64,000 bases of DNA from Bdellovibrionales bacterium. Its GTDB lineage: Bacteria; Patescibacteriota; JACMRA01. Below are positions 1,309-56,670 of this stretch, in pieces. A program made the translations under genes and the position numbers. The stretch lies in the NCBI GenBank assembly GCA_044378055.1, contig JBILXY010000005.1, forward strand, positions 4,525 to 68,524, in the 5' to 3' direction. The notes under the pieces are model-generated. The model was not told the DNA's origin, made no database searches, and saw only the letters and a list, made by a program, of their open reading frames with translations. Position 1 is the first letter of the stretch. The number at the start of each line of letters is the position of its first letter.

Positions 1309-2121
1309 ATGGAATACAAACTTCCAAAAACAGAAAATGAAATATTGGCCCTTATTGGGCCCGTTTCTGTGCAAGAACATTTCGAATACCTAAAATTCCA
1401 CGCCAAAAGATATAAGTATCTGCTCGAGGTAATATCTAAAACGATAAACGAGGAAATTCCCCTCTGGAGGGGTGGCTCTGAAAGAGACGGGGTGGACAAA
1501 TTCGCCGATAGTAAGCTCGACGACGACATGTTGAAATATATCCCAATCAAAAACAAAATCCTAGACATAGGCACCGGCTTCGAAGTTCAATTATTCCGAG
1601 ATATTTTTAAAGTTTTAGTAGATACAGCAGGATTTTACCATTCTGGTTGGCCTGAAAAAGATGGAGAAACTTTTTACGAATTAGATTTAAATAAGTTGGA
1701 GAATTTGAGCGACAAAGTTCATCAGAAATATCCTTTAATTATAATGGCTGAGGTTATAGAGCATATCTACACTGCCCCAGAACTTGTATTACCAAAAATT
1801 AAAAATTGGCTTTTACCGGATGGTATTTTAGTTATTCAAACCCCAAATGCAGTTGCGCTTCCTAAAAGATTAAAAATGTTATTTGGAATTCATCCTTTTG
1901 AAAAAATTAGGCTTAATTCAGCCAATCCAGGGCATTTTCGTGAGTACACCCTAGAAGAACTTACGACCATTGTTGAAACCGTCGGATTCAAGGTTTTATT
2001 CGCATCAAGAAAAAACTACTTTTCCCCAAACAACAAATTCCTCCGTTTTTTGTATTCCTTAGAATTTTTATGGCCGAAAAGTTTAAGAACTGGGATAACT
2101 TTGGTGGTTAAAAAGCTGTAA
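1309..2121 (+). CDS. Class I SAM-dependent methyltransferase (Methyltransf_11/23-like)
   Basis: ILDIGTGFE resembles motif I. IIMAEVIEHIYTAPELVLPKIKNWLLPDGILVIQTPN is typical of the post-II/III region. Confidence 0.65.
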   Translation: MEYKLPKTENEILALIGPVSVQEHFEYLKFHAKRYKYLLEVISKTINEEIPLWRGGSERDGVDKFADSKLDDDMLKYIPIKNKILDIGTGFEVQLFRDIFKVLVDTAGFYHSGWPEKDGETFYELDLNKLENLSDKVHQKYPLIIMAEVIEHIYTAPELVLPKIKNWLLPDGILVIQTPNAVALPKRLKMLFGIHPFEKIRLNSANPGHFREYTLEELTTIVETVGFKVLFASRKNYFSPNNKFLRFLYSLEFLWPKSLRTGITLVVKKL

Positions 2122-2247
2122 TAATTTTTTATTTAAACTTTCGAAATTGATATTTTAGATAGATAGTTTTTAACATTTATTTAATTTGAACTAAACAATG
2201 AACACAACCTTGACAAACTGAGGCTTAAAAGACACTTTTAATTAGTA

Positions 2248-2322
2248 GGATTCGTAGCTCAGTGGTAGAGCAGGAGACTCTTAATCTCTTGGCCGTGGGT
2301 TCAAGTCCCACCGGATCCACCA
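2248..2322 (+). tRNA. tRNA-Lys (anticodon CUU), CCA encoded
   Basis: Hand-folded cloverleaf. Acceptor GGATTCG/CGGATCC, D arm GCTC-AGTGGTA-GAGC, anticodon arm GGAGA-CTCTTAA-TCTCT, T arm GTGGG-TTCAAGT-CCCAC, discriminator A plus CCA. Confidence 0.9.
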
Positions 2323-2418
2323 AACAAAAATTAAACCGAGCAAAGTCTCAATAATTTATAATATGATGCGGAGTGGCCTTAATAAGCTGGATATCTTAAC
2401 AATTAAAATTTTTTACCT

Positions 2419-3132
2419 ATGTCAGTTGAACTACATCGCCCACTTGTGTTGCACTATGAAACCGCAGCCGAAATGTATAAACAAGCTGAAGAAATGGCAG
2501 TTCGCCAAATTTTAGATATGACGGCTGAACTTGGGCTTGCCAGAGTTGCACTTGCCGGTGGCACTACCCCAATTCCAATGTATGAATTAATGGCATCAGA
2601 CCCAGTTTTTCCATGGCACGAAGTTGAAATTTATCAGACCGACGAACGCTATGTTCCAGCCAATTCTGATAGTTCAAATCAGTATAAAATTCGCCATGCT
2701 TTAGGCGAAGAAGCTATGCAATTGGTTCGCGGATTCAACACTTTCAATGTTAATTTAACCCCAGATTTATCAGCTAAAAACTATCATGAAGAATTAGACA
2801 CCTTAGACGGTAAAATGTTTGATTTAGTTGTTCTAGGTATAGGTGACGATGGCCACATTGCCTCCCTTTTCCCAGAAGGTGATTATTTAAAACACCAACC
2901 AAAACATACACTTGTAACCACCGCCCCAAGCAGCTTAGTTGGTGAACAAAGAATGAGTTTAACCATTGAAGCAATTTTGAACAGCGAAATGATTTTAGTT
3001 TTACTGAAAGGTTCAGATAAACGCGAAGTTGTTACTGAAATGCTTGAAGGAAGAAAGAAGGCTTTTGAATTTCCAGCCAAATTCTTGCTGGCTCACCCTA
3101 ACCTAAAAATTTTCCAGACATTCGAAGATTAG
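2419..3132 (+). CDS. pgl: 6-phosphogluconolactonase
   Basis: VALAGGTTP, YQTDERYVP and LGIGDDGHIASLFPE are hallmark motifs of the 6PGL / glucosamine-6-P isomerase family. Confidence 0.85.
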   Translation: MSVELHRPLVLHYETAAEMYKQAEEMAVRQILDMTAELGLARVALAGGTTPIPMYELMASDPVFPWHEVEIYQTDERYVPANSDSSNQYKIRHALGEEAMQLVRGFNTFNVNLTPDLSAKNYHEELDTLDGKMFDLVVLGIGDDGHIASLFPEGDYLKHQPKHTLVTTAPSSLVGEQRMSLTIEAILNSEMILVLLKGSDKREVVTEMLEGRKKAFEFPAKFLLAHPNLKIFQTFED

Positions 3133-3211
3133 TTTTTAAGTTGTAATAAGTTCTACTTTACAAAATTCTTTAACTAGCTAAATACTTAGGCTGGACTATA
3201 GGAGTAACACA

Positions 3212-3640
3212 ATGGGTTTGCCTACAATTGTAATTAAGTTAGGTAAAAATTTCGGAGCAACAAATGACTTTATAAACAGTCAAGAGTTCAAAAATAATTC
3301 GGATAAAATGCTTGTAGCTATAATATTTGAATTAGTTAGTAAACATGTAACTATAACCATTTATGATAATATCTTAATCGTTAATGATGATAGTGTTGCT
3401 AATACTATTAAAATTAAATTTTGCGATATTTCTTCTTTCAGTTTAGAAGATAAATCAGTGGATTTAGTTGTAGCCGGAAGTTATATTTACTCTGAAATAA
3501 ATGAAACATGGTTATTTATTAGCTCAGATTTTATTTGCAAAGAGGGCTTAATATTTCCTATTGAACTTGAAATGTATACTTCTGGGGTAAACATTATTAA
3601 GTACATTCTCCCCAACAATTTTTATCCTAATGGATTTTAA
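3212..3640 (+). CDS. Hypothetical protein (142 aa)
   Basis: ORF only. An AGGAG-like site (taggagtaacacaatg) lies upstream and a terminator hairpin follows. Confidence 0.4.
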   Translation: MGLPTIVIKLGKNFGATNDFINSQEFKNNSDKMLVAIIFELVSKHVTITIYDNILIVNDDSVANTIKIKFCDISSFSLEDKSVDLVVAGSYIYSEINETWLFISSDFICKEGLIFPIELEMYTSGVNIIKYILPNNFYPNGF

Positions 3641-3646
3641 AATATG

Positions 3647-3670
3647 CAGGTAACCAATCCTGTTTTTTTC
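3647..3670 (+). terminator. Putative intrinsic terminator, copy 1 of an identical 24-nt unit
   Basis: CAGGTAACCAATCCTGTTTTTTTC: a short CAGG/CCTG stem followed by T7. The same 24 nt recur at 4107-4130. Confidence 0.5.
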
Positions 3671-3743
3671 ATTTATGTTGACTTTGGGCTTCAATTCATT
3701 CTTACTATATTTAGTAATCTAATTATATTATTGTGAGGTTTTA

Positions 3744-4106
3744 ATGATATCAATTTTTCTTATTTCCGAAGATAAAGTTGTTATTAATAGATTTCAACAA
3801 GCCTGCAAAAAGGTAGTTGGATTTGAAATTATTTCGTTCACCGATATGAGCGGGCTGGATACGATTAGACATTTCTTATCAATTAAGAAAATTTACATTT
3901 TTGCGATACATACTGAAAAGTACCTAGATTTCGTTGATAATATTTGCAATAAAGGAGGTAGATTAAATACAGGTTTTGTTATAGTTTATTGGAAGACTAT
4001 TGAAGGCATTTATGCAAACTGTGAAAAAATTGATAAAATTGTGCCATGTCCATATTTATTAAAGCAAGTTGAATTGTTTTGTTACATATTTGAAGGATGT
4101 GAATAA
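3744..4106 (+). CDS. Hypothetical protein (120 aa), possibly a degenerate receiver-like fold
   Basis: ORF only. The N-terminus MISIFLISEDKVVINRF resembles the first strand and helix of CheY-like domains but lacks the acidic pocket. Confidence 0.4.
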   Translation: MISIFLISEDKVVINRFQQACKKVVGFEIISFTDMSGLDTIRHFLSIKKIYIFAIHTEKYLDFVDNICNKGGRLNTGFVIVYWKTIEGIYANCEKIDKIVPCPYLLKQVELFCYIFEGCE

Positions 4107-15329: not shown

Positions 15330-15707
15330 CTAAATAGCTTTCCTTAAAATCTTGTCCATACTTTTACCCTTAGCTAGTTCATCAATTAATTTATCTAAAT
15401 ACCGAATTTCTTTCATTAGCGGTTCTTGAATTTCTTCTATCCTTACCCCACAAATAACACCTTTTATTAAAGTTCGAAGCGGATTAAGTTTAGCCTGGGC
15501 AAAAAATTCTTCAAAATTTACCATGTTTACAATCTGTTTTTCAAATTCTTTTTGAGTGTAACCTGTAAGCCATAAAATGATTTCATCCACCTCAGCCTTA
15601 GTTCGGTTTTTTCTTTCAGCTTTTTGGATGTAAAGTTTATAAACACTGGCAAAAGACATGTCATAAATTCTTGGCCTGATTAGTTTCGAAGAAGAGATGT
15701 TTGGCAT
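15330..15707 (-). CDS. DUF2200 domain protein
   Basis: [37 protein letters not shown]...[22 protein letters not shown] closely follows the DUF2200 consensus as recalled. Confidence 0.8.
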
Positions 15708-15780
15708 AAATTAATTTCCAATATAACTTATCTATTTAGATTCAAATTGTAAACAAAAAATATCTAATACTTAGGATATC

Positions 15781-15890
15781 CTAGATAGGGGAACATAAGT
15801 GAAGCGAGGGAAGTACCCCTGGTAAGGGGTCAGAGTTTGAAAAACTCTGGGGGTAGCAAGGGGACAAGCCGCAGGCTTGGGGGGTAGCCA
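15781..15890 (+). repeat. GC-rich multi-hairpin element, family 1, copy A
   Basis: CCTAGATAGGGG ... GTACCCCTGGTAAGGGGT (15813-15830), then CAGAGTTT-GAA-AAACTCTG, GGGGTAGC, AAGCC-GCA-GGCTT, GGGGGGTAGCC. Confidence 0.9.
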
Positions 15891-15905
15891 GATTTTCAAA
15901 TGAAA

Positions 15906-16310
15906 CTATCGGAGCATTTTAGCCCAAACCTTATTCATCTTTTCATCGAAAGTGTGAAGCTTTCTATTTTCTGTTTTAGCTAAGACCAAATTGTAATTAT
16001 CTTCTAATCCTAAAGTATTTTGCTGTGACAAGCTTAAAGCCTTTACTAATATATCTTCATTTTCAAACTCTACCATTGTTGATAAATACAAGTTTTCCAA
16101 AAAAGTTACAATTTCAGTTTCTTGCCATTTGTAAACTTTGGTAAGCACCCACAAAAATTCAAACACAGAAACCAAACTTACCCTTACACTTTCACCATTT
16201 GTTTTACATTTAATTAGAAAGTTAGAAACAATATTAGACTGCTCAGAATTTTTCTCTACTGCTAGTCTTACAAGATAATTTGTATCAATAAGGTGTAAAT
16301 TATTTGCCAT
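15906..16310 (-). CDS. PIN-domain toxin (VapC-like)
   Basis: N-terminus LIDTNYLVRL carries the first acidic PIN residue. About 134 aa. The ATG at 16310 overlaps the upstream antitoxin stop by 11 nt. Confidence 0.7.
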   Translation of the reverse strand: MANNLHLIDTNYLVRLAVEKNSEQSNIVSNFLIKCKTNGESVRVSLVSVFEFLWVLTKVYKWQETEIVTFLENLYLSTMVEFENEDILVKALSLSQQNTLGLEDNYNLVLAKTENRKLHTFDEKMNKVWAKMLR

Positions 16311-16593
16311 ATATACTACCATATTTATCTTTTATAAATTCAGTTTTACCCTTTTCAATAAGTGCTTCTAGCTCTTCATTTGTAAGATTTTTAAACTGTT
16401 TTGGAACTTCTAAAGATCCTTGTAATTTTTTTAGTTCTTCAATTGGGTTAACTATCTGGTATTCACCGTGAATAGTTTTAACTATTAAAAGGCTATTTTG
16501 CGAAGTTTTAGACACATCAATATCCAACTCTTTTAACAAAGCAACTGGAATAGTAACTTGATTCTTAGAAGAAATCTTTAACTTATAAGTCAT
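16300..16593 (-). CDS. AbrB/SpoVT/MazE-type antitoxin
   Basis: MTYKLKISSKNQVTIPVALLKELDI is a looped-hinge-helix (SpoVT-AbrB) motif. Translationally coupled to the PIN gene. Confidence 0.7.
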   Translation of the reverse strand: MTYKLKISSKNQVTIPVALLKELDIDVSKTSQNSLLIVKTIHGEYQIVNPIEELKKLQGSLEVPKQFKNLTNEELEALIEKGKTEFIKDKYGSIYGK

Positions 16594-16680
16594 AGTAAAG
16601 GAATTGTATTAAAAGTAAGGGGAAATGTCAACCACCGCTAATTCTAAGCTTAGTAAACTGCCCCGATTGCTACGCAATAA

Positions 16681-16759
16681 CCCCTAAATAGGGGTACATT
16701 AGTGAAGCGGAGGAAAAGTACCCCTGGTAAGGGGTCAGAGCGTAGCTCTGGGGGTAGCC
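16681..16759 (+). repeat. GC-rich multi-hairpin element, family 1, copy B
   Basis: CCCCTAAATAGGGG ... AGTGAAGCGG ... GTACCCCTGGTAAGGGGT (16718-16735), then CAGAGC-GTA-GCTCTG, GGGGTAGCC. Confidence 0.9.
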
Positions 16760-16770
16760 GTTAGCTAAAT

Positions 16771-17541
16771 TTATATTGGCCAATCGTAATTAGGAATAAA
16801 CAATCTTATTGTGTAGTATAATAGTAGTGTTATAAACATGAGTGCCATACCAATAAATATACCAGGCATATTTTGTTTTAAAAAATATACAACTATTCCG
16901 TCCAAAGGCCTACCAAAAATATCATTTTTATCAATTGCATTTAGTACAAAAATAAACTTTCTCTTATTAAAATTTTTTTGTATGAGTGTGCCAATTTTAT
17001 CTATAATGAAAGGTGTAAAGATAATTATTATATTTAAGTATAAAAAATTCCATTTAAGTAAATACCAAAGAAATAGCAAAATTAAAACTGCAACCAAAAT
17101 AGGTAATATAAACAAAATGAAGTTTGAATCGTTAGTAAATCTGTATTGCAAAAATTTATCAATAAAGCCTCTTCTTTTCTTACATACATAATCTATCTCC
17201 TTTAATATTTTTTGGTATTCTCTAATTGTTGTAAGATCTGATAATGATACTTCAAAAATATAACCGTCTGAGTAATTTTTACGAATGTTTATTGATTCAA
17301 TTAATTTTGATGTTGAAGAGTAGTCATTAAATGATAAACTAAAACCATCTTCTTCATAATTTTTAACTTCATCTAATATTTCATGCCATTGTTTATCGTT
17401 GGTTAAATCAGAAACTTTACACTTTATTCTAAAAAAAGAAATTTCTCTAGAACCATCAATATAATTTAAAATAAACTTTTTCAATTCGTTTAAACTAATT
17501 TTTGATGGATGTGTAATTTTGACCTCTGTTGATGGGTACAT
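16771..17541 (-). CDS. Hypothetical protein: ~140-aa soluble N-domain plus 3-4 C-terminal TM helices
   Basis: ORF only. The hydrophobic stretches ILFILPILVAVLILLFLWYLL, LYLNIIIIFTPFII and GIFIGMALMFITLLLYY are visible. Confidence 0.5.
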   Translation of the reverse strand: MYPSTEVKITHPSKISLNELKKFILNYIDGSREISFFRIKCKVSDLTNDKQWHEILDEVKNYEEDGFSLSFNDYSSTSKLIESINIRKNYSDGYIFEVSLSDLTTIREYQKILKEIDYVCKKRRGFIDKFLQYRFTNDSNFILFILPILVAVLILLFLWYLLKWNFLYLNIIIIFTPFIIDKIGTLIQKNFNKRKFIFVLNAIDKNDIFGRPLDGIVVYFLKQNMPGIFIGMALMFITLLLYYTIRLFIPNYDWPI

Positions 17542-17579
17542 ACTTATAAAAGGATATATTTAATCATTTATGTCCATTG

Positions 17580-18140
17580 TTAAATATCTTCAATCCACTC
17601 CACCAACACACTCCTAACCCCCTCCAAATTCTCCAAAACCTCCTCATTAGTAAATCTTAAAACCTTAATCCCGCATCCTTTCAAAAAATCGTCTCTAACT
17701 TTATCATAACCTAGTTTTTCATTATGGCTTTCTCCGTCTATTTCAATTGCCATCAACAATTCCGCACAGTAAAAATCTAAAATATAATTATCTATAATTT
17801 TTTGTTTTATAAATTTATAACCACTTAATTTCTTTTCAGACAAAACTTCAAACCAAATTTTTTGCTCGGCTTTGGTCATAAACCTAGACATTTTTTTAGA
17901 TCGATCTAAAAGTTTTGGGTTGTAATTAATTCTTTTGAACGGAGATTGGATTTCTGGTTGAATATTCTTAATATTGGTGTTGGCTACCCCCAAGCCACCC
18001 CCAGAGTTTTGCAAACTCTGACCCCTTACCAGGGGTACTTTTGACCTAGTTTCACTCAAAGTACCCCTATCTAGGGGTGAAACCAAAGGTTTCGGGGTAG
18101 TGGGTGTAGTACGCCTCTTAAACCTATCCAACTTACCCAT
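17580..18140 (-). CDS. DUF559 (Vsr-like / PD-(D/E)xK) endonuclease domain protein with a repeat-encoded N-terminus
   Basis: C-terminus NYNPKLLDRSKKMSRFMTKAEQKIWFEVL...YKFIKQKIIDNYILDFYC...AIEIDGESH...RDDFLKGCGIKVLRF matches DUF559. ATG at 18140 (TTG at 18146 is also possible), 10 nt after the thrS stop. Confidence 0.8.
   Translation of the reverse strand: MGKLDRFKRRTTPTTPKPLVSPLDRGTLSETRSKVPLVRGQSLQNSGGGLGVANTNIKNIQPEIQSPFKRINYNPKLLDRSKKMSRFMTKAEQKIWFEVLSEKKLSGYKFIKQKIIDNYILDFYCAELLMAIEIDGESHNEKLGYDKVRDDFLKGCGIKVLRFTNEEVLENLEGVRSVLVEWIEDI
17982..18106 (-). repeat. GC-rich multi-hairpin element, family 1, copy C (inverted, most complete)
   Basis: The reverse complement reads GAAACC-TTT-GGTTTC, CCCCTAGATAGGGG, AGTGAAAC, GTACCCCTGGTAAGGGGT (18021-18038), CAGAGTTT-GCA-AAACTCTG, GGGGTGGC, TTGGGGGTAGCC. 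It lies inside the 5' part of the DUF559 ORF. Confidence 0.9.
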
Positions 18141-18150
18141 AAACAAGACC

Positions 18151-20013
18151 TTACAACCCCTTCAAAAACTCACCCAATCCCTCCAACCCAACCTTACTCT
18201 CTCCTTCCTGTGTTCTTACAGAAACCTGCCCTTCGGCAATATCCTTCGGCCCAACGATTATCAACACTGGGATTTTTTGCATTTCGGCTTCTCTAATTTT
18301 TTTACCTAGGGATTCTGAACGGTCATCAACTTCAAACCTAATTTCGTTGTATTTTAAAGGTTTCATAAGCACTGTTTCGTCCAAAATTTCCTTTACTTTT
18401 TCAACATATTCCAAAGTTTCAGGCTGAGTATTAATAGTTAAAATTTTAACCTGGGTTGGGGCTAACCAAAACGGGAATCGTCCACCGAAGTGATCTATAA
18501 TAACACCCATAAATCTTTCTGAAGAACCGGCTATTGCTCTATGAATTACAACTGGTCTTTCTTTTTCGCCAGCTTCATTTATGAATTCTAAACTGAATCT
18601 TTCTGGTAAGTTAAAATCGCATTGAATTGTGGCAAGCTGCCATTCTCTTCCCAAGGCATCTTTGAACATGAAATCTAATTTAGGACCATAAAATGCAGCC
18701 TCTCCTTCAACCCGTTTATAGTTAAGATTATTAAGCTTTGCCGCTTCTTCCAAAGCATTTTCCGCAGTGTTCCAAGCCTCGTTAGAACCAAGATATTGAT
18801 CCAAATCATTCATATCTCTTACCGACAGAGAAACCCAGCTTGATTCCATTCCAACAGTTTCGTAAAACGAACGGATTATTTCAACGATTGTACTTACTTC
18901 GTCTTTTATCTGAGTAATGCGGCAGAATAAATGTCCATCATCTTGTGTGATTGAGCGGACTCTTGTAAAACCAGATAATTGCCCTGGCTTTTCATCACGG
19001 TAAACTGTGGCATGTTCAAAGTAACGCACCGGCATATCGCGGTAGCTAAATTGGTTATCTGCAAAAAGCTGCATATGATGAGGGCAGTTCATCGGCTTCA
19101 TAAAGAAATTATCTGATTTACCTTGCACACGGAAAAGCTCATCTCCAAATTTAGCAGCATGCCCAGAAGTTATATACAATTCTTCCTTGGCAATATGCGG
19201 TGTCCAAACCCTTTTGTAACCTCTGCAGCGATGTAATTGCCATAAATAATCTTGAATATTTTGACGAATGATCATTCCATTTGGCTGGAAAAGTGGTAAG
19301 CCAGCCCCAACCAATTCACTAATTGTATAATATTTTTGGGTTTCGTTTAAAACTCTATGATCCCGTTTCTTAGCTTCTTCCCTAGCATCTTGGAACTCGG
19401 TTAATTCATCTTTTGTTTCAAAAACCAAGGCGTAAATTCTTTGCATTCTAATATCTCTTTCTTGGTCACCACGCCAGTAAGAAGCAGAAAATTTATCTAG
19501 GGCAAAGCCAGCATGTTTTAACTCTTTTACATGCTCAATATGTGGCCCTTTGCACAAATCTTCAAACACAATTTCCCCAGTGCTTTCATTCACCAAACGG
19601 TAGATAGTAATTTTCAATTCCCCCATTAAACTTTCTGATAGTTCAAAGTTTTCTTTTTCTTCCACACTCATGCTTGTTGTACCCCTGGTTCTAAGGTCAT
19701 TTAAAAGTTCAACTTTAAGCGGTTGATTGTTCTTTTCAAAAAGCTCTATTGCCTCAATAATACTAACTTCTTGAACTTTAAAAGCTAAGTGTTGCTTTAA
19801 CATTTCCCTCATTTTTTCCTCTAATAAAGGTAAGTCTTCTGGAATTAAAGTTCGTGGTAAAATAAAGTCGTAGTAACAACCGTTTTCAATAACAGGCCCA
19901 ACGCCGTATTGAGCTTCTGGGAACATTTGACCAACAGCTGCAGCCATAATGTGGGCCATAGAATGACGCTTTGTATCAAGGGAAAGGTTTTGTGAGTTCG
20001 GGGAAAGTGACAT
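18151..20013 (-). CDS. thrS: Threonine--tRNA ligase (no N-terminal TGS domain)
   Basis: HSMAHIMAAAV (editing-domain HxxxH), CKGPH, YWRGD, EEAKKRDHRVL, class II motifs (FRVQGKS..., RVRSITQDDGHLF, GSSERF) and a C-terminal anticodon-binding domain. Confidence 0.95.
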   Translation of the reverse strand: MSLSPNSQNLSLDTKRHSMAHIMAAAVGQMFPEAQYGVGPVIENGCYYDFILPRTLIPEDLPLLEEKMREMLKQHLAFKVQEVSIIEAIELFEKNNQPLKVELLNDLRTRGTTSMSVEEKENFELSESLMGELKITIYRLVNESTGEIVFEDLCKGPHIEHVKELKHAGFALDKFSASYWRGDQERDIRMQRIYALVFETKDELTEFQDAREEAKKRDHRVLNETQKYYTISELVGAGLPLFQPNGMIIRQNIQDYLWQLHRCRGYKRVWTPHIAKEELYITSGHAAKFGDELFRVQGKSDNFFMKPMNCPHHMQLFADNQFSYRDMPVRYFEHATVYRDEKPGQLSGFTRVRSITQDDGHLFCRITQIKDEVSTIVEIIRSFYETVGMESSWVSLSVRDMNDLDQYLGSNEAWNTAENALEEAAKLNNLNYKRVEGEAAFYGPKLDFMFKDALGREWQLATIQCDFNLPERFSLEFINEAGEKERPVVIHRAIAGSSERFMGVIIDHFGGRFPFWLAPTQVKILTINTQPETLEYVEKVKEILDETVLMKPLKYNEIRFEVDDRSESLGKKIREAEMQKIPVLIIVGPKDIAEGQVSVRTQEGESKVGLEGLGEFLKGL

Positions 20014-20096: not shown

Positions 20097-20121
20097 CGTA
20101 GGGGAATGCCTACGGCTTCCC
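20097..20121 (-). repeat. GC-rich hairpin with a CTACG tail (family 2-like) in the thrS upstream region
   Basis: The minus strand reads GGGAA-GCCGTAGGCA-TTCCC-CTACG. An alternative hairpin CGTAGG-CATTCC-CCTACG overlaps it. Confidence 0.6.
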
Positions 20122-20175
20122 AAAAATTAAACCTTAAACATTTTCTTCATTTTATTTAGTATTTATAATTTGTGT

Positions 20176-30804: not shown

Positions 30805-31704
30805 GTGGCATTAGGTAAAAGTTTAGGAAACATTCTTGGCGACTATTTCGGTCAAGAAAGCGTAACTCTTGGAAATCAGGAGTCTAATTTTGGTAAAGAT
30901 ACCCTTGTAACTTTGCTTCCTATAAATTCTATAAACCCTAGTCCGTTTCAAACCAGATCGATTTTTGAAGATAATAAAATTAACAAATTAGCTGCAAGCA
31001 TTAAGGAAAGTGGCTTGATTCATCCAATTTTGGTTTTGAAAAGAGACAAAGATAGCATAGACGAAAGTGCAGATGGTTTTGAATATACACTTTTGGCTGG
31101 GGAAAGAAGACTTCGAGCTTGCAAAAGTTTGGGTTTTACAGAAATTTTGTGCATTATTAAACCTTTTGATTCACTTTCAGGTAAGCAGCAAGCCATGTTG
31201 GCAGCAGTAGAGAATTTGCAAAGGGAAGATTTAAGCCCTATCGAACTTGCCGGAACTTTTTTGATGTTAATGCAAACCCAGAATTTTGATGAGCAGGAAT
31301 TAGCCGACAATCTTGGTCATTCTTTGCAGTATGTAAAAAACTATATAAGATTGTTAACTTTAGATCAAACCGTTCAACAAGCCTTATTGGAAAGAAAAAT
31401 TGGTGAAGGTCAGGCAAGATTTTTAGTTGGATTAGAACCTAATTTACAAATAAAACTTTTACAAAGAATTATCGCCGAAGAATTAACAGTGAAGGAAATT
31501 TCGGCTATTACTTCGCAATTAAAATCTGCAGTAGCAGTTAAACCAGTTTTAACACCTAAATTAAAGACAGTAACTAAATTTAGCCCTGATATTATTGTTA
31601 AAGCCCAAAAGCTTGCAGAAATATTCCCTAACGCAGTTTTAAAGTGCACAGGAAGCGAAGAAGAAGGCAAAATTGTAATTTCCTGGAAAAAAGAAGCCAA
31701 GTAG
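30805..31704 (+). CDS. parB: ParB/Spo0J-family partition protein
   Basis: GTG start. LGKSLGNILG, INPSPFQTR, HPILV and LLAGERRLRACKSLG motifs, plus an HTH region. Confidence 0.85.
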   Translation: MALGKSLGNILGDYFGQESVTLGNQESNFGKDTLVTLLPINSINPSPFQTRSIFEDNKINKLAASIKESGLIHPILVLKRDKDSIDESADGFEYTLLAGERRLRACKSLGFTEILCIIKPFDSLSGKQQAMLAAVENLQREDLSPIELAGTFLMLMQTQNFDEQELADNLGHSLQYVKNYIRLLTLDQTVQQALLERKIGEGQARFLVGLEPNLQIKLLQRIIAEELTVKEISAITSQLKSAVAVKPVLTPKLKTVTKFSPDIIVKAQKLAEIFPNAVLKCTGSEEEGKIVISWKKEAK

Positions 31705-31782
31705 GGGAACACTAGCGGTTCCTAAAATTCTCAACAAACCACATTATTCGCCCCCAAGCTAAACTATAAGAGAGGGAATTTT

Positions 31783-35684: not shown

Positions 35685-35728
35685 AATAATGTATAAATAA
35701 TTTTTAATTAAGGTTTCGGTAAATTTGT

Positions 35729-35800
35729 GTACCCCTGGTAAGGGGTCAGAGCGAAGCTCTGGGGGTAGCAAGGGGTCAAGCCAAAGGCTTGGGGGTAGCC
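35729..35800 (+). repeat. GC-rich multi-hairpin element, family 1, copy D
   Basis: GTACCCCTGGTAAGGGGT (35729-35746), then CAGAGC-GAA-GCTCTG, GGGGTAGC, AAGGGGTC, AAGCC-AAA-GGCTT, GGGGGTAGCC. Confidence 0.9.
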
Positions 35801-39331: not shown

Positions 39332-39371
39332 AAAGTTTTATTAAATTAAAAAACTAGAAAAAATTAAAATT

Positions 39372-42392
<3,021 letters not shown>

Positions 42393-42481
42393 TAACTTTT
42401 TATAGATCTTTAATTTTTTTCGAACTTACACGTTAGAAAGATTTAGTATTTCTACTAATGCTTTTCTACCGCGGTTTTTAT

Positions 42482-42575: not shown

Positions 42576-43307
42576 TTATTTCGCCAAAAGGTGTTTGTAC
42601 TTCTCTTTCAAAGCTATCAAATGTGTGTTTAAATAGAGGCTTTTAGTCATTTTCTGGCTACGATTAGTTTCGTGCATTCTATGCAAATGACTGTAAAAAT
42701 GTAAATAAATAGGCATTTCTTCTTGTTCCAAAAAAGATAAATACATATCAATATCTTCTGGGCCAACAAAATTTTCGTCCATACCACCAACCCTAGCAAT
42801 CAACTCTTTCTTAATTAATGTATTAAATTGAATAAAATGGTCACCTGTTAACACTGATTTAAGTAAGTCAGAAACATCTTTAAATTTCCAGCCGTAATAA
42901 TCTTCTCCTGATAGGTATGATAGTTTCGCATCTACCCTTAAAAAATCTGCAACAAACCAATTGGTTTTAGGATTAGATTTTATTGCCACTGCGAAGTTTG
43001 CTAAGGTTCTTTGTAGAATAATATCGTCGTCATCTAAAACAAAAATCCAATCATATTTAGCTTTGGCAACTCCTAGATTGAAAGCTTTTTTTCGGCCTAC
43101 ATTTTCTTTTAAATCTATGAAGCTAAAATTTTCTGGGAAAGATTGAGCGTTTAAATACTTACTTACATCAGGGTTACCGTCATTAACAATAATATATTCC
43201 CAAGTTATTTGATGTGGAGTATTGATTAAGTTTACAACACTTTCTATTGTTTCGTTTAGGAATTGTATTCTGCTTGTTCTGGTTATAACAGAGATGGTTG
43301 TGTTCAT
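42576..43307 (-). CDS. Family 2 glycosyltransferase
   Basis: ISVITRTSRIQFLNETIESV..., IIVNDGNPD and FVLDDDDII (DxD) motifs. Start at the internal ATG (MNTTISVI). Confidence 0.8.
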   Translation of the reverse strand: MNTTISVITRTSRIQFLNETIESVVNLINTPHQITWEYIIVNDGNPDVSKYLNAQSFPENFSFIDLKENVGRKKAFNLGVAKAKYDWIFVLDDDDIILQRTLANFAVAIKSNPKTNWFVADFLRVDAKLSYLSGEDYYGWKFKDVSDLLKSVLTGDHFIQFNTLIKKELIARVGGMDENFVGPEDIDMYLSFLEQEEMPIYLHFYSHLHRMHETNRSQKMTKSLYLNTHLIALKEKYKHLLAK

Positions 43308-43399
43308 GATTATATAAATATCAAAGATGGTGGATTGGGTCAAAAAAAATATCACCCCGAAGGGTGATTTATTGGTAAATTATATTTATTGGCCAAAGC

Positions 43400-43516
43400 G
43401 GGAGATAGTAAATATCTCCCCTACGGTAAAATTTTGTTCGACGCAATGGTCGCATTTATGGCGATCCGCGATCGCCGCTACGGGCCCAAACGGGAGGATG
43501 AATTCTTCCCCTACGG
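43400..43516 (+). repeat. Cluster of three GC-rich hairpins, each followed by CTACGG (family 2)
   Basis: GGGAGATA-GTAAA-TATCTCCC-CTACGG (43400-43426). GGCGATC-CGC-GATCGCC-GCTACGG (43460-43483). GGGAGGA-TGAAT-TCTTCCC-CTACGG (43492-43516). Confidence 0.85.
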
Positions 43517-43520
43517 TTTT

Positions 43521-44789
43521 TTACCTGCTGATTAGGGTGAAGGCTTTGCCGAATTTTCCGTTTCTGCCTGTTCTACCAATACGATGGATGTAATCTTCGT
43601 AACTCATTGGTTCGTCGAAGTTTACTACTGAAGAAATATCGCTAACATCAATACCACGCGCAGCAACATCTGTAGCAACTAAAATATCGATTTGTGTCTG
43701 TCTGAATCTTTTTAGTGCAATTTCGCGGTGTTTCTGGGTTTTACCTCCGTGAATGAAATCTGTGATATATCCGCTTTGACCTAATTGGGATGAAACTTGT
43801 TCAGCCATGATTTGGGTATTAACGAATACTAAAGTTTTAGTTCTTCCTTCTTTTTGAAGAATATCTAGTAAAACATCGATTTTTCTGTTGCTTCTATCAA
43901 TATGTACTGCTTCTTGGTGTACGAACATGGAAGGTTTAGGCTGGTTTAACTGAATATAGTCAGCAGTTGGGGCTAAACGATTAATGGTTGGTTGCACTTT
44001 TTTATCTAAAGTAGCAGAGAAGAATAGGTTTTGATGAACTTCAGGAATTTTGCTGAACAATAAGTTAATATCGTCGGAAAAACCCATATCTAACATTCTA
44101 TCCATTTCGTCTAAAACTACTGTATCTACATATTCAAGTTGTAAAACTCCGCGGTGGAATAAATCTACAAGTCTTCCTGGTGTTCCAATGATGAAGTGAT
44201 TAGGACGACTTAAACCACGAATTTGGGTGCCCATTGAAGCTCCGCCAATACAAGTTTGTACTCCAATTCTTAGTTTTCTTAAATCGAAAGTCATTAATTC
44301 TTTTTCAATTTGAAGAGCAAGTTCACGAGTAGGGGCAATAATTAAATTAACCTGAATTTGGTTGTTCTTTGCGTGAGCAATTGTTTGATTAAGAAGAGGG
44401 ATTAAGAAAGCTCCGGTTTTACCTGAACCTGTTTGAGAAATTGCCACAATATCTTTTCCGCCTAAAACGACTGGAATTGATAGAGCCTGAATTTCTGTAG
44501 GGCTGTAATAGCCTCTTGCTGTAAGAGATTCTAAAATTTCTGGGGCAAGGTTTAAAGATTCAAAAGAACCGAAGTCTTTTTGTTCTTCAACGATAGTAAG
44601 TTCAGCTTGGTTGATTGTTTGATTGTAAAGGGAAATATCTAGAGTTTGACCTCTTCTTCCTCCTCTACCTCCGCCCCGACCTCCGCGGCCTGAACTGAAA
44701 CCTGAACGGCCACCACCAAAACTTCTACCTCCTCCTCTGTTCGAATTGGAGCGACCACCAAAGCCTCCTCCTTGAGAATTATAATTCAT
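43521..44789 (-). CDS. DEAD-box ATP-dependent RNA helicase with an N-terminal RGG-rich tail
   Basis: Q motif (GYYSPTEIQ), AISQTGSGKTGAF, PTRELA, VLDEMD (motif II variant), SAT, VATDVAARGIDV and HRIGRTGRNG. Confidence 0.92.
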   Translation of the reverse strand: MNYNSQGGGFGGRSNSNRGGGRSFGGGRSGFSSGRGGRGGGRGGRRGQTLDISLYNQTINQAELTIVEEQKDFGSFESLNLAPEILESLTARGYYSPTEIQALSIPVVLGGKDIVAISQTGSGKTGAFLIPLLNQTIAHAKNNQIQVNLIIAPTRELALQIEKELMTFDLRKLRIGVQTCIGGASMGTQIRGLSRPNHFIIGTPGRLVDLFHRGVLQLEYVDTVVLDEMDRMLDMGFSDDINLLFSKIPEVHQNLFFSATLDKKVQPTINRLAPTADYIQLNQPKPSMFVHQEAVHIDRSNRKIDVLLDILQKEGRTKTLVFVNTQIMAEQVSSQLGQSGYITDFIHGGKTQKHREIALKRFRQTQIDILVATDVAARGIDVSDISSVVNFDEPMSYEDYIHRIGRTGRNGKFGKAFTLISR

Positions 44790-55701: not shown

Positions 55702-55748
55702 AGGGAAGTACCCCTGGTAAGGGGTCAGGGCGAAGCCCTGGGGGTAGT
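55702..55748 (+). repeat. GC-rich multi-hairpin element, family 1, copy E (short)
   Basis: GAGGGAA, GTACCCCTGGTAAGGGGT (55708-55725), then CAGGGC-GAA-GCCCTG, GGGGTAG. The second stem carries a compensated A>G / T>C pair relative to copies B and D. Confidence 0.9.
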
Positions 55749-55820
55749 TTTGGGTCAATTGGAAAAATACAAATTACTAAATTAATGTTAATTTTAGGAC
55801 TGGGAAGTAAAAATTACAAC

Positions 55821-55834
55821 CCCCTCAGGAGGGG
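55821..55834. repeat. CCCCT-N4-AGGGG hairpin followed by AATTT
   Basis: CCCCTCAGGAGGGG-AATTTT, 5 nt beyond the stop of the frameshifted minus-strand gene. Confidence 0.8.
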
Positions 55835-55838
55835 AATT

Positions 55839-56209
55839 TTAGACTTTTGTATTTACAACTTTAACATAGAAAATTGCTGAAAATACTGTTCCAAATATTG
55901 GCGGAATTATTAGTTGTATTGGATACGGATACCCATTCCATGTTAATGAAATAAAAACTAAAACCGACCCAAAAGTGTAAATTCCGATTGTAACTAAAGC
56001 CACGGGAATACTCCAATTTCTTTTTTTCCACAGGCCAAAGGAGGTGATAATCGAGATTGGGCCAGTAATTATCAGGTCTGCTGTGGGTAGTAATATTTTG
56101 TCTAAACTATTTTGTGAAAATAACCAACCAGTTCCCCAGGTTGATAAACTGCCAACAATCGCAAAAATTCCTGTGAGCAGAAAAAACCAAGCAAAATTAT
56201 AAATTTCAT
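55839..56209 (-). pseudogene. Membrane protein gene (about 123 codons) interrupted by a 1-nt frameshift in a T6 run
   Basis: ATG at 56209 gives MKFIILLGFF. After the T-run (plus-strand A6 at 56181-56186) the only long open frame is +1: ...LLTGIFAIVGSLSTWGTGWLF...IIPPIFGTVFSAIFYVKVVNTKV*. The total of 371 nt is 3n-1. Confidence 0.5.
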
Positions 56210-56507: not shown

Positions 56508-56521
56508 CCCCTCAAGAGGGG
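56508..56521. repeat. CCCCT-N4-AGGGG hairpin followed by AATTT
   Basis: CCCCTCAAGAGGGG-AATTTA, preceded by TCGCTACGCGA. A partial complement TTGAGGGTG lies about 85 nt downstream. Confidence 0.8.
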
Positions 56522-56670
56522 AATTTATTGGTCGTGTATTTGTGTATCACAACGGCGTTGAATCTTACTACGCTTCTAGAGGTTTTCGTGGTGGGTTGAG
56601 GGTGTAGCCTACTACAGTTAATTTATTGACAATTGTATTATTTTGAGGGTTTTTTAATAAAATTAGCAAT

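Follow-up and report, generated by a model that had tools for sequence, protein, structure and literature searches.

Short, modular palindromic DNA repeats in and around genes of low-GC, small-genome freshwater bacteria

The 64,000-nucleotide stretch described here, which we call the window, comes from contig JBILXY010000005.1 of a Bdellovibrionales bacterium (assembly GCA_044378055.1, positions 4,525 to 68,524) and has a GC content of about 33%. Scattered through it are copies of a short, GC-rich palindromic element. They lie in an island 3' of the threonyl-tRNA synthetase gene thrS, where one of them overlaps an endonuclease gene of the DUF559 family, upstream of nusA, and just past a DUF4336 gene. 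The original prediction, made from the sequence alone, had listed five copies sharing an exact 18-mer, GTACCCCTGGTAAGGGGT, and all five are found, at 15813 (+), 16718 (+), 18021-18038 (-), 35729 (+) and 55708 (+). None of 100 dinucleotide-preserving shuffles held any match to the 18-mer at up to three mismatches. A covariance model was built from 36 distinct units, and the window was scanned with it without filters; this yielded seven full units at five loci, a separate module at 35771-35800 and one weak, decayed copy at 1452-1497. The copies are probably members of a family of short, modular, GC-rich palindromic DNA repeats, selfish in the manner of repetitive extragenic palindromes (REPs), bacterial interspersed mosaic elements (BIMEs) and Rickettsia palindromic elements (RPEs), and mobilized in trans, with a REP-associated tyrosine transposase (RAYT) as the leading candidate enzyme.

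The unit is about 42 nt long and consists of an A-rich run, hairpin A (GTACCCCT-N4-AGGGGT), hairpin B and a closing GGGGTAG(C/T). Hairpin A has a 6-bp stem of invariant sequence with the loop GGTA, ATCT, ATTT, ATCA, TTCA or GGCA, and hairpin B has a 6-8-bp stem of free sequence with a loop that is mostly GAA, GTA, GCA or AAA. C-GNA-G triloops are an exceptionally stable DNA mini-hairpin motif, which would fit a DNA-level hairpin here. The two ends of the unit, AAAGTACCCC and GGGGTAGTTT, are complementary at nine of 10 positions. Copies 1 and 4 are extended by a 30-nt tandem module, AGGGGT-hairpin-GGGGTAGCC, and both the 42-nt unit and the 30-nt module are multiples of three in length. Copies 2 and 3 are inverted head-to-head doublets whose outer ends read CTACCCC and GGGGTAG and whose arms stand about 22 nt apart. 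The second and third hairpins quoted in the original prediction are present in the sequence as written there, the third, given for two copies, being part of the tandem module (15859-15889 and 35771-35800). Its copy limits needed correction: copy 2 occupies 16656-16760 and not 16681-16759, and copies 2 and 3 each include an inverted second unit (16656-16701 on the reverse strand and 18057-18102 on the forward strand). The features are as follows.

1452-1497, + strand: decayed copy in the methyltransferase open reading frame (ORF) 1309-2121, in frame F1 (defined below), peptide PLWRGGSERDGVD (17.2 bits, E=0.004; the weakest entry)
15778-15808, + strand: decayed left arm (ATCCTAGATAGGGG) and spacer (ataagtgaagcgagg) of a former doublet, 5' of copy 1 (read from the sequence)
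15809-15858, + strand: copy 1 unit, ACCCCT-GGTA-AGGGGT, hairpin B CAGAGTTT-GAA-AAACTCTG, then GGGGTAGC (18-mer; 59.4 bits)
15859-15889, + strand: copy 1 tandem module of the 30-nt type, AGGGGAC-AAGCC-GCA-GGCTT-GGGGGGTAGCC (sequence reading, repeat analysis and covariance model)
16656-16701, - strand: doublet 2 left arm, GTACCCCT-ATTT-AGGGGT, TATTGC-GTA-GCAAT, GGGGCAG (covariance model, 55.7 bits; inverted repeat)
16714-16759, + strand: doublet 2 right arm (copy 2), hairpin B CAGAGC-GTA-GCTCTG (covariance model, 70.1 bits)
17580-18146, - strand: DUF559 (Vsr-like PD-(D/E)XK) endonuclease ORF, whose first ~55 codons run through doublet 3 (Pfam, homologues, AlphaFold2)
17982-18042, - strand: doublet 3 right arm (copy 3), hairpin B CAGAGTTT-GCA-AAACTCTG, then GGGGTGGC-TTGGGGGTAGCC (covariance model, 59.1 bits over 17993-18042)
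18057-18102, + strand: doublet 3 left arm, GTACCCCT-ATCT-AGGGGT, GAAACC-AAA-GGTTTC, GGGGTAG (covariance model, 65.4 bits)
35725-35770, + strand: copy 4 unit, hairpin B CAGAGC-GAA-GCTCTG, upstream of nusA (covariance model, 64.5 bits)
35771-35800, + strand: copy 4 tandem 30-nt module, AGGGGT-CAAGCC-AAA-GGCTTG-GGGGTAGCC (covariance model, 24.1 bits, E=2e-5)
55704-55749, + strand: copy 5 unit, hairpin B CAGGGC-GAA-GCCCTG, 6 nt past the stop of the DUF4336 gene (covariance model, 69.4 bits)

The remnant spacer beside copy 1 matches the spacers of doublets 2 and 3 and those of two closely related loci, L002 and L003 (loci outside the window carry L numbers here, and proteins P numbers). The decayed copy at 1452-1497 reads CCCCT-CTGG-AGGGGT GGCTCT-GAA-AGAGAC GGGGTGGAC, and its host ORF, 1309-2121, matches a Pfam methyltransferase domain from residue 74. 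Folded as DNA, single units form two hairpins, and doublets pair arm with arm, leaving hairpin B as a side branch. The fold z-scores run from -3.1 to -5.9 across the element copies: the copy 1 unit with its module reaches -4.5, doublet 2 (16656-16760), which folds into a long branched hairpin, -5.2 and doublet 3 -5.9. A G-quadruplex reading, suggested by the four G-runs in copies 1 and 4, does not hold generally, as single units have two G-runs and one C-run.

Across the 36 distinct units, hairpin A is constant except for one G-T pair. The positions of hairpin B are paired in 98.6% of cases, a figure that falls to 52-60% on shifting the 3' partner by one column; in five of its six pairs both sides are altered, and its covariation score was reached by none of 500 shuffles. 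The alignment of all 58 covariance-model hits, described below, agrees with these statistics (98-99% paired). The covariance model proposed in the original prediction thus recovers the units, with pairing above both the shuffle and the slid-partner controls. G-T pairs occupy only 3 of the 432 pair cells of the two hairpins, so both strands keep Watson-Crick pairing, as expected of a DNA palindrome and not of an RNA read from one strand.

Strong nested hairpins with covariation are also what one would see if the elements worked as RNA, as a terminator, an mRNA-stabilizing structure or a small structured RNA gene whose fold is selected. Most window copies do lie just past gene ends, and on the reverse strand, hairpin A with TACTTTT behind it receives a weak terminator-like score. 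We nevertheless regard a role as RNA as quite improbable. Besides the near absence of what would be G-U pairs in RNA, the copies face either way with respect to the flanking genes, a U-run is not consistently present, and many copies, of both orientations, are located within essential coding sequences, where termination would do harm. The short TACTTTT tail of reverse-strand hairpin A is the only feature in the family that approaches an intrinsic terminator. In a search of the window against Rfam 15, only 23S rRNA and tRNA-Lys reached the gathering score, and nothing relevant appeared at E<=1 over 15700-18200; the elements are thus not fragments of a known RNA family. The earlier suggestion that structure is selected, as DNA hairpin or as RNA, is borne out as far as the kept pairing goes, and its RNA half is disfavoured.

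How the pairing is kept is another matter. The stems of hairpin B fall into about 11 recurring types (CAGAGC, CAGGGC, CAAAGC, CAAGCC, GAAACC, GATGGC, GATTGC, GAAGGC, TATTGC, CAGAGTTT and CAAAATTC). At all four sites that could be compared with close relatives, hairpin A is identical and hairpin B differs as a whole module.

Upstream of nusA: window CAGAGC + CAAGCC, L013 GAAACC
thrS-DUF559 site: window CAGAGTTT, L002 CAAGCC
Downstream of the DUF4336 gene: window CAGGGC, L004 CAAAGC, with CAGGGC in a second L004 copy 233 bp further on
Copy 1 site: window CAGAGTTT + AAGCC, L003 CAAGCC + CAAGCC

These comparisons, made on sequence, point to module turnover in which one copy replaces or converts another at the conserved GGGGT borders, rather than to slow compensatory substitution. 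The compensatory stem changes noted earlier are therefore real as pairing, and consist mostly of exchange among the recurring stem types. Whole-module swaps at orthologous sites argue for conversion or replacement at the DNA level as much as for selection on point mutations.

Beyond the window, an exact 21-mer had no match in 185,579 GTDB representative genomes and turned up on freshwater metagenome contigs in 12 stretches, seven of them syntenic with the window (87-96% identity) and five with unrelated flanks. A complete metagenome-assembled genome (MAG) chromosome of 1.27 Mb and ~33% GC, OY969926.1, has at least 12 loci by a degenerate pattern, one of them (L013) in synteny with the window's nusA region; the same pattern matched single loci in other MAGs. 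Further copies thus exist outside the window. Over the window and the related loci, 293 kb in all, the covariance model gave 58 hits, and doublets also occur in L002, L003, L008, L026, L035 and L036. From the genome size we can only infer a host lifestyle like that of the candidate phyla radiation. The exact 18-mer is absent from viral contigs, and 14 matches there to a looser pattern are chance, since they lack hairpin B and the contigs are GC-rich. A single degenerate-pattern match in Streptomyces is likewise chance. Tandem arrays of ACCCCT-N4-AGGGGT with a period of ~24 nt, flanked by GTAC or GTAG, are found in GC-rich genomes of other phyla, namely a Kiritimatiellia MAG (L015, L022 and L030) and a Prevotellaceae MAG (L020 and L025). 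We set these arrays aside as unrelated; they may represent convergence or a widespread motif resembling hairpin A.

The copies had been described as islands in intergenic DNA, and this does not hold for all of them. Copy 3 lies within the DUF559 ORF, the decayed copy at 1452 is also in an ORF, and many copies in relatives are in-frame in genes. The thrS gene of L031 contains a 42-nt unit in-frame (...FEK[VPLARGQATGLGVV]QFGVGP...), which appears as one clean 13-residue net gap (a 14-residue insert) against the window ThrRS; the L031 sequence and those of the window, L002 and L003, at ~60% amino-acid identity, are too diverged to fix the insertion boundaries. The same L031 ThrRS (1699-3930, reverse strand) has ~110 further residues (150-258) relative to that of the window. 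An in-frame copy is present in the ValRS gene of L024, the L006 ArgRS has its catalytic domain split by an in-frame two-module copy 24 codons long, and other in-frame copies lie in genes for a UvrD-like helicase, Pol I and Fmt. More distant genomes have an ATAC-headed variant in a class I aminoacyl-tRNA synthetase gene (four copies), miaA, hsdM and hsdS, all with zero internal stops in the ORF. Of 54 units, 12 have at least 60 open codons on both sides, and about as many again lie near ORF N-termini.

These insertions are readable as protein. Frame F1 (GTA CCC CTG..., giving VPLVRG...) is stop-free in all 15 variants, and frame 2 always has a stop. One could therefore suppose that the repeat is selected as a peptide, VPLVRGQxxxLGVA (SPLxRGT in the reverse frame), which spreads as a functional module; the 1452 copy and the forward copies within genes in L006, L016, L017, L024 and L031 are all read in F1, and the unit and module lengths divide by three. 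We find this barely plausible. Copies inside genes occur in both orientations and in several frames, which argues for passive tolerance and not for a peptide function. At least half of the copies are intergenic, conservation is at the level of the DNA palindrome with the residues encoded by hairpin B left free, and the element-coded part of the DUF559 protein is predicted to be disordered. A 72-residue composite-profile search for element-coded insertions in a 5.8-billion-protein set is uninformative, as matches of 13-15 residues cannot reach E<=10 in it.

The original prediction likened the element to REP/BIME or MITE-like repeats (miniature inverted-repeat transposable elements). With REPs, BIMEs and REPINs it shares short, GC-rich imperfect palindromes with a GTAG-containing motif and a variable stem in which pairing is kept, as well as inverted doublets, tandem clusters, tens of copies (seven units in the 64 kb of the window) and a position mostly just outside gene ends. 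Its inverted pairs form long hairpins, at 16656-16760, at 17982-18102 and at six loci in relatives, and relatives that bear the element encode RAYT-like genes. It differs from REPs in having two hairpins per unit and many intragenic copies. MITEs such as Correia, ERIC and Nezha are likewise small, non-autonomous, structured and dispersed, and the complementary unit ends resemble terminal inverted repeats. MITEs are also sometimes intragenic with in-frame fusions (PMC10969869), as are copies of the element. The units are, however, far below the usual MITE size, and neither the ThrRS insertion nor any other copy showed a target-site duplication. Neither the window nor ~290 kb of related loci yielded a parent insertion sequence sharing the element ends; the only gene there that carries a doublet is that of DUF559, at one end only.

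Because of its in-frame intragenic copies, the closer analogue of the element is the RPE. In-frame palindromic insertions in coding genes are the RPE hallmark (Ogata et al. 2000, 2002, as reviewed in PMC10969869). The element shares with RPEs in-frame insertion into unrelated housekeeping genes of a small-genome bacterium, a recurrent peptide and intact ORFs; the genes that harbour it here are those of ThrRS, ValRS, ArgRS, Pol I, the UvrD-like helicase, hsdM/S, a class I aminoacyl-tRNA synthetase, miaA and DUF559. It differs in measuring 42 nt per unit and ~105-125 nt per doublet, as against ~100-150 bp for an RPE, and in its modular architecture with a hypervariable paired hairpin B. Size and host lineage (low GC, with a 1.27-Mb relative, and not Rickettsia) set it apart from the families RPE-1 to RPE-10. 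The review cited above mentions no linkage of RPEs to DUF559 or RAYT. The element is best described as a new family of a kind already known, that of REP/RPE-like palindromes. Three traits are distinctive: an invariant hairpin beside a hypervariable paired one, in-frame colonization of genes in relatives, and a constant doublet in a mobile DUF559 gene.

As had been noted, no transposase is visible in the window. E. coli RayT as a phmmer query had no hit there, and no transposase was seen when the translations of all 72 window ORFs were read by eye. Over the sequences gathered, the same phmmer query gave one hit, L006:1566-2384, which has the HUH and Y motifs, scores 21 bits against Pfam Y1_Tnp, just below the cut-off of 23, and lies on the same contig as the ArgRS copy. 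Homologues of this RAYT-like protein are P0009 and P0015 on OY969926.1 and P0003 from metagenome 3300005528, the source of L001 and L012; several carry the JGI name 'REP element-mobilizing transposase RayT'. The window also contains a second repeat family, of the classical RAYT type, '(CC)GTAG + G-rich hairpin', at 20098-20125, 31701-31722 and ~43398-43517, the last comprising three clustered 'hairpin + CTACGG' units that lie between ORFs 42576-43355 and 43521-44789. In relatives, the RAYT-like genes L006:1566-2384 (-), L033:6001-6648 and L038:6001-6654 are interrupted in-frame by REPIN-like repeats; in the L006 gene, a GTAG...CTAC doublet of ~110 nt has been inserted twice and the ORF remains open. 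From these arrangements, the cognate repeats of the RAYT-type enzymes appear to be the GTAG-headed family, although the enzymes co-occur with the element.

Several observations weigh against a RAYT-mobilized repeat of the REP/RPE kind. The element lacks the GT[AG]G foot of a REP: hairpin A is headed by GTAC, and GTAG stands 3' of hairpin B. The three RAYT-like genes examined have no unit within 6 kb (L006, L033, L034 and L038-L040 were checked), and what flanks and in-frame interrupts these genes is the other, GTAG-headed hairpin repeat and not the element. The apparent covariation is largely reuse of the ~11 stem types, so the independent events are far fewer than the pair cells. At the sites compared, neither a clean pair of filled and empty nucleotide sites nor a target-site duplication was found, and transposition itself is thus not demonstrated; 3' of the DUF4336 gene, the window and L004 are too diverged beyond the element for an empty-site comparison. 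The REP/BIME-like assignment hence stands for anatomy, inverted doublets and dispersal and fails for the GTAG foot and the RAYT flanks.

A different enzyme is physically linked to the element. In the window DUF559 protein, the Pfam match begins at residue 79, ahead of the first internal Met at 86; the only in-frame start codons of the ORF lie inside or before the doublet; in L026, they are limited to codon 1 and the internal Met; and DUF559 homologues conserve a short N-terminal motif, MG.L..FK+. Together these place the doublet within the DUF559 coding sequence. Every member of a DUF559 clade of at least 12 proteins (50-89% identical) has a 5' doublet at the same place, some with extra units, and homologues without one exist (P0137 and P0138). 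In the AlphaFold2 model of the window protein, residues 1-76 are unstructured (pLDDT 41-54) and the nuclease domain exceeds 90. The gene with its doublet directly follows the stop of thrS in the window, nrdB in L026, hsdS/hsdR in L035 and class I aminoacyl-tRNA synthetase/miaA in L036. Since the preceding gene differs from genome to genome, the DUF559 gene and doublet would move as a unit and, to judge by sequence context, behave like a free-standing mobile endonuclease gene. Within a genome, the doublet on DUF559 is of the variant that is also dispersed there (in L036 with the ATAC head and GTGA loop, in L026 with the TTCA loop), and in L035 the hairpin B CAAGAC-AAA-GTCTTG is common to the DUF559 doublet and the hsdM copy.

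These findings raise the possibility that the DUF559 endonuclease is the cognate enzyme and that its mobile gene carries a master doublet within the 5' end of its coding sequence. Gene conversion, set off by nicking of hairpin or cruciform DNA, would then spread and homogenize units and doublets, also in-frame into essential genes. The constant position of the doublet across the clade, the changing genes behind which the pair is found and the match between gene-borne and dispersed variants all speak for this. So does the bracketing of DUF559 plus a variable cargo ORF by inverted elements in the window, L002, L003 and L026, and one member of the DUF559/Vsr clade, I-Bth0305I, is a proven homing endonuclease (PMC3424549). 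Free-standing homing endonuclease genes of the Vsr/DUF559 type (EDxHD, I-Bth0305I) are also like the window gene in that it lies directly after conserved-gene stops in varying contexts. Even so, we consider this explanation unlikely, if less so than the others weighed here against a RAYT-mobilized repeat. OY969926.1 has at least 12 units, yet the protein search found no DUF559 homologue on it and none lies in the 96 kb around those units. Some DUF559 homologues lack the doublet, and a single ancestral in-frame insertion, inherited and homogenized like other copies, explains the linkage equally well. Moreover, homing through double-strand-break repair does not alone account for dispersal to unrelated sites. 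To our knowledge, an embedded 5' repeat doublet with dispersed solitary copies is not a described feature of Vsr/DUF559 homing genes. If the reading were true, DUF559 and its palindrome would be a second, independent enzyme-palindrome partnership beside RAYT and REP, with another class of enzyme.

The DUF559 gene belongs to a variable island 3' of thrS (15781-18146) that comprises, in order from thrS, a doublet, DUF559, a membrane ORF, a doublet, an AbrB/PIN toxin-antitoxin pair and a unit. The ORF between the doublets is without a BLAST match in the otherwise syntenic L002 and L003. Among Logan contigs with the window ThrRS (L055-L058), several short-read contigs stop ~80 nt past the thrS stop, that is, at doublet 3. 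Such an arrangement invites comparison with attC-like site-specific recombination sites around exchangeable cassettes. The stretch from 15.8 to 18.1 kb is divided by three elements, each interval containing one or two accessory genes on the same strand (DUF559 and the membrane ORF, then the toxin-antitoxin pair), and within conserved flanks, the ORF enclosed by doublets 2 and 3 is not the same in the window, L002 and L003. Recombination sites of this type are nonetheless very improbable: the element sequence lacks the R''/R' GTTRRRY core sites, reading the translations of the window ORFs by eye revealed no integrase, element orientation in the array is not uniform, and most family members are solitary or intragenic.

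Returning to a trans-mobilized repeat as the preferred reading, we picture the element as non-coding by origin, in low-GC, small-genome uncultured bacteria, and acting as DNA. Its hairpins would form on single-stranded DNA, and doublets could extrude as branched cruciforms. A structure-specific enzyme supplied in trans would copy the element to new sites and homogenize the copies, the invariant hairpin A and the GGGGT(A) motifs being the part recognized by protein and hairpin B purely structural. The leading candidate for this enzyme is a Y1 (HUH) transposase of the RAYT type, for which the element-bearing relatives examined have genes, and the alternative is the DUF559 nuclease; the former is the conventional guess and the latter the more novel one. 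Copies lie in either orientation relative to transcription. Those that land in genes would survive only if in-frame and stop-free, and would then be translated as short, probably disordered surface insertions.

In-frame colonization of housekeeping genes by selfish palindromes has been regarded as nearly a peculiarity of Rickettsia. The copies described here would extend the phenomenon to free-living or episymbiotic small-genome freshwater bacteria, where it reaches aminoacyl-tRNA synthetases and RAYT-like genes. Two palindrome families, one of them RAYT-type, coexist in one genome and offer a comparison for recognition, copying and homogenization. There is also a practical side, as the repeat breaks short-read assemblies and inflates or splits predicted proteins in MAG annotation.

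A few further observations concern the surroundings of the element. In L018 (1800-2900), inverted units 830 bp apart surround a small ORF (52-85 residues), and each is preceded by a different type of hairpin, GTAGGGGAAGGATTTATCCTCC or GGAGGGCTCCTGCCCTCC. The window has a lone 23S rRNA gene at 39359-42398 (-), no 16S or 5S rRNA having been detected in the 64 kb; here, then, the rRNA genes are unlinked. Two hairpins followed by a T-run, at 55821-55845 (CCCCTCAGGAGGGGAATTTT) and 56508-56530 (CCCCTCAAGAGGGGAATTT), resemble intrinsic terminators and are separate from the element family.

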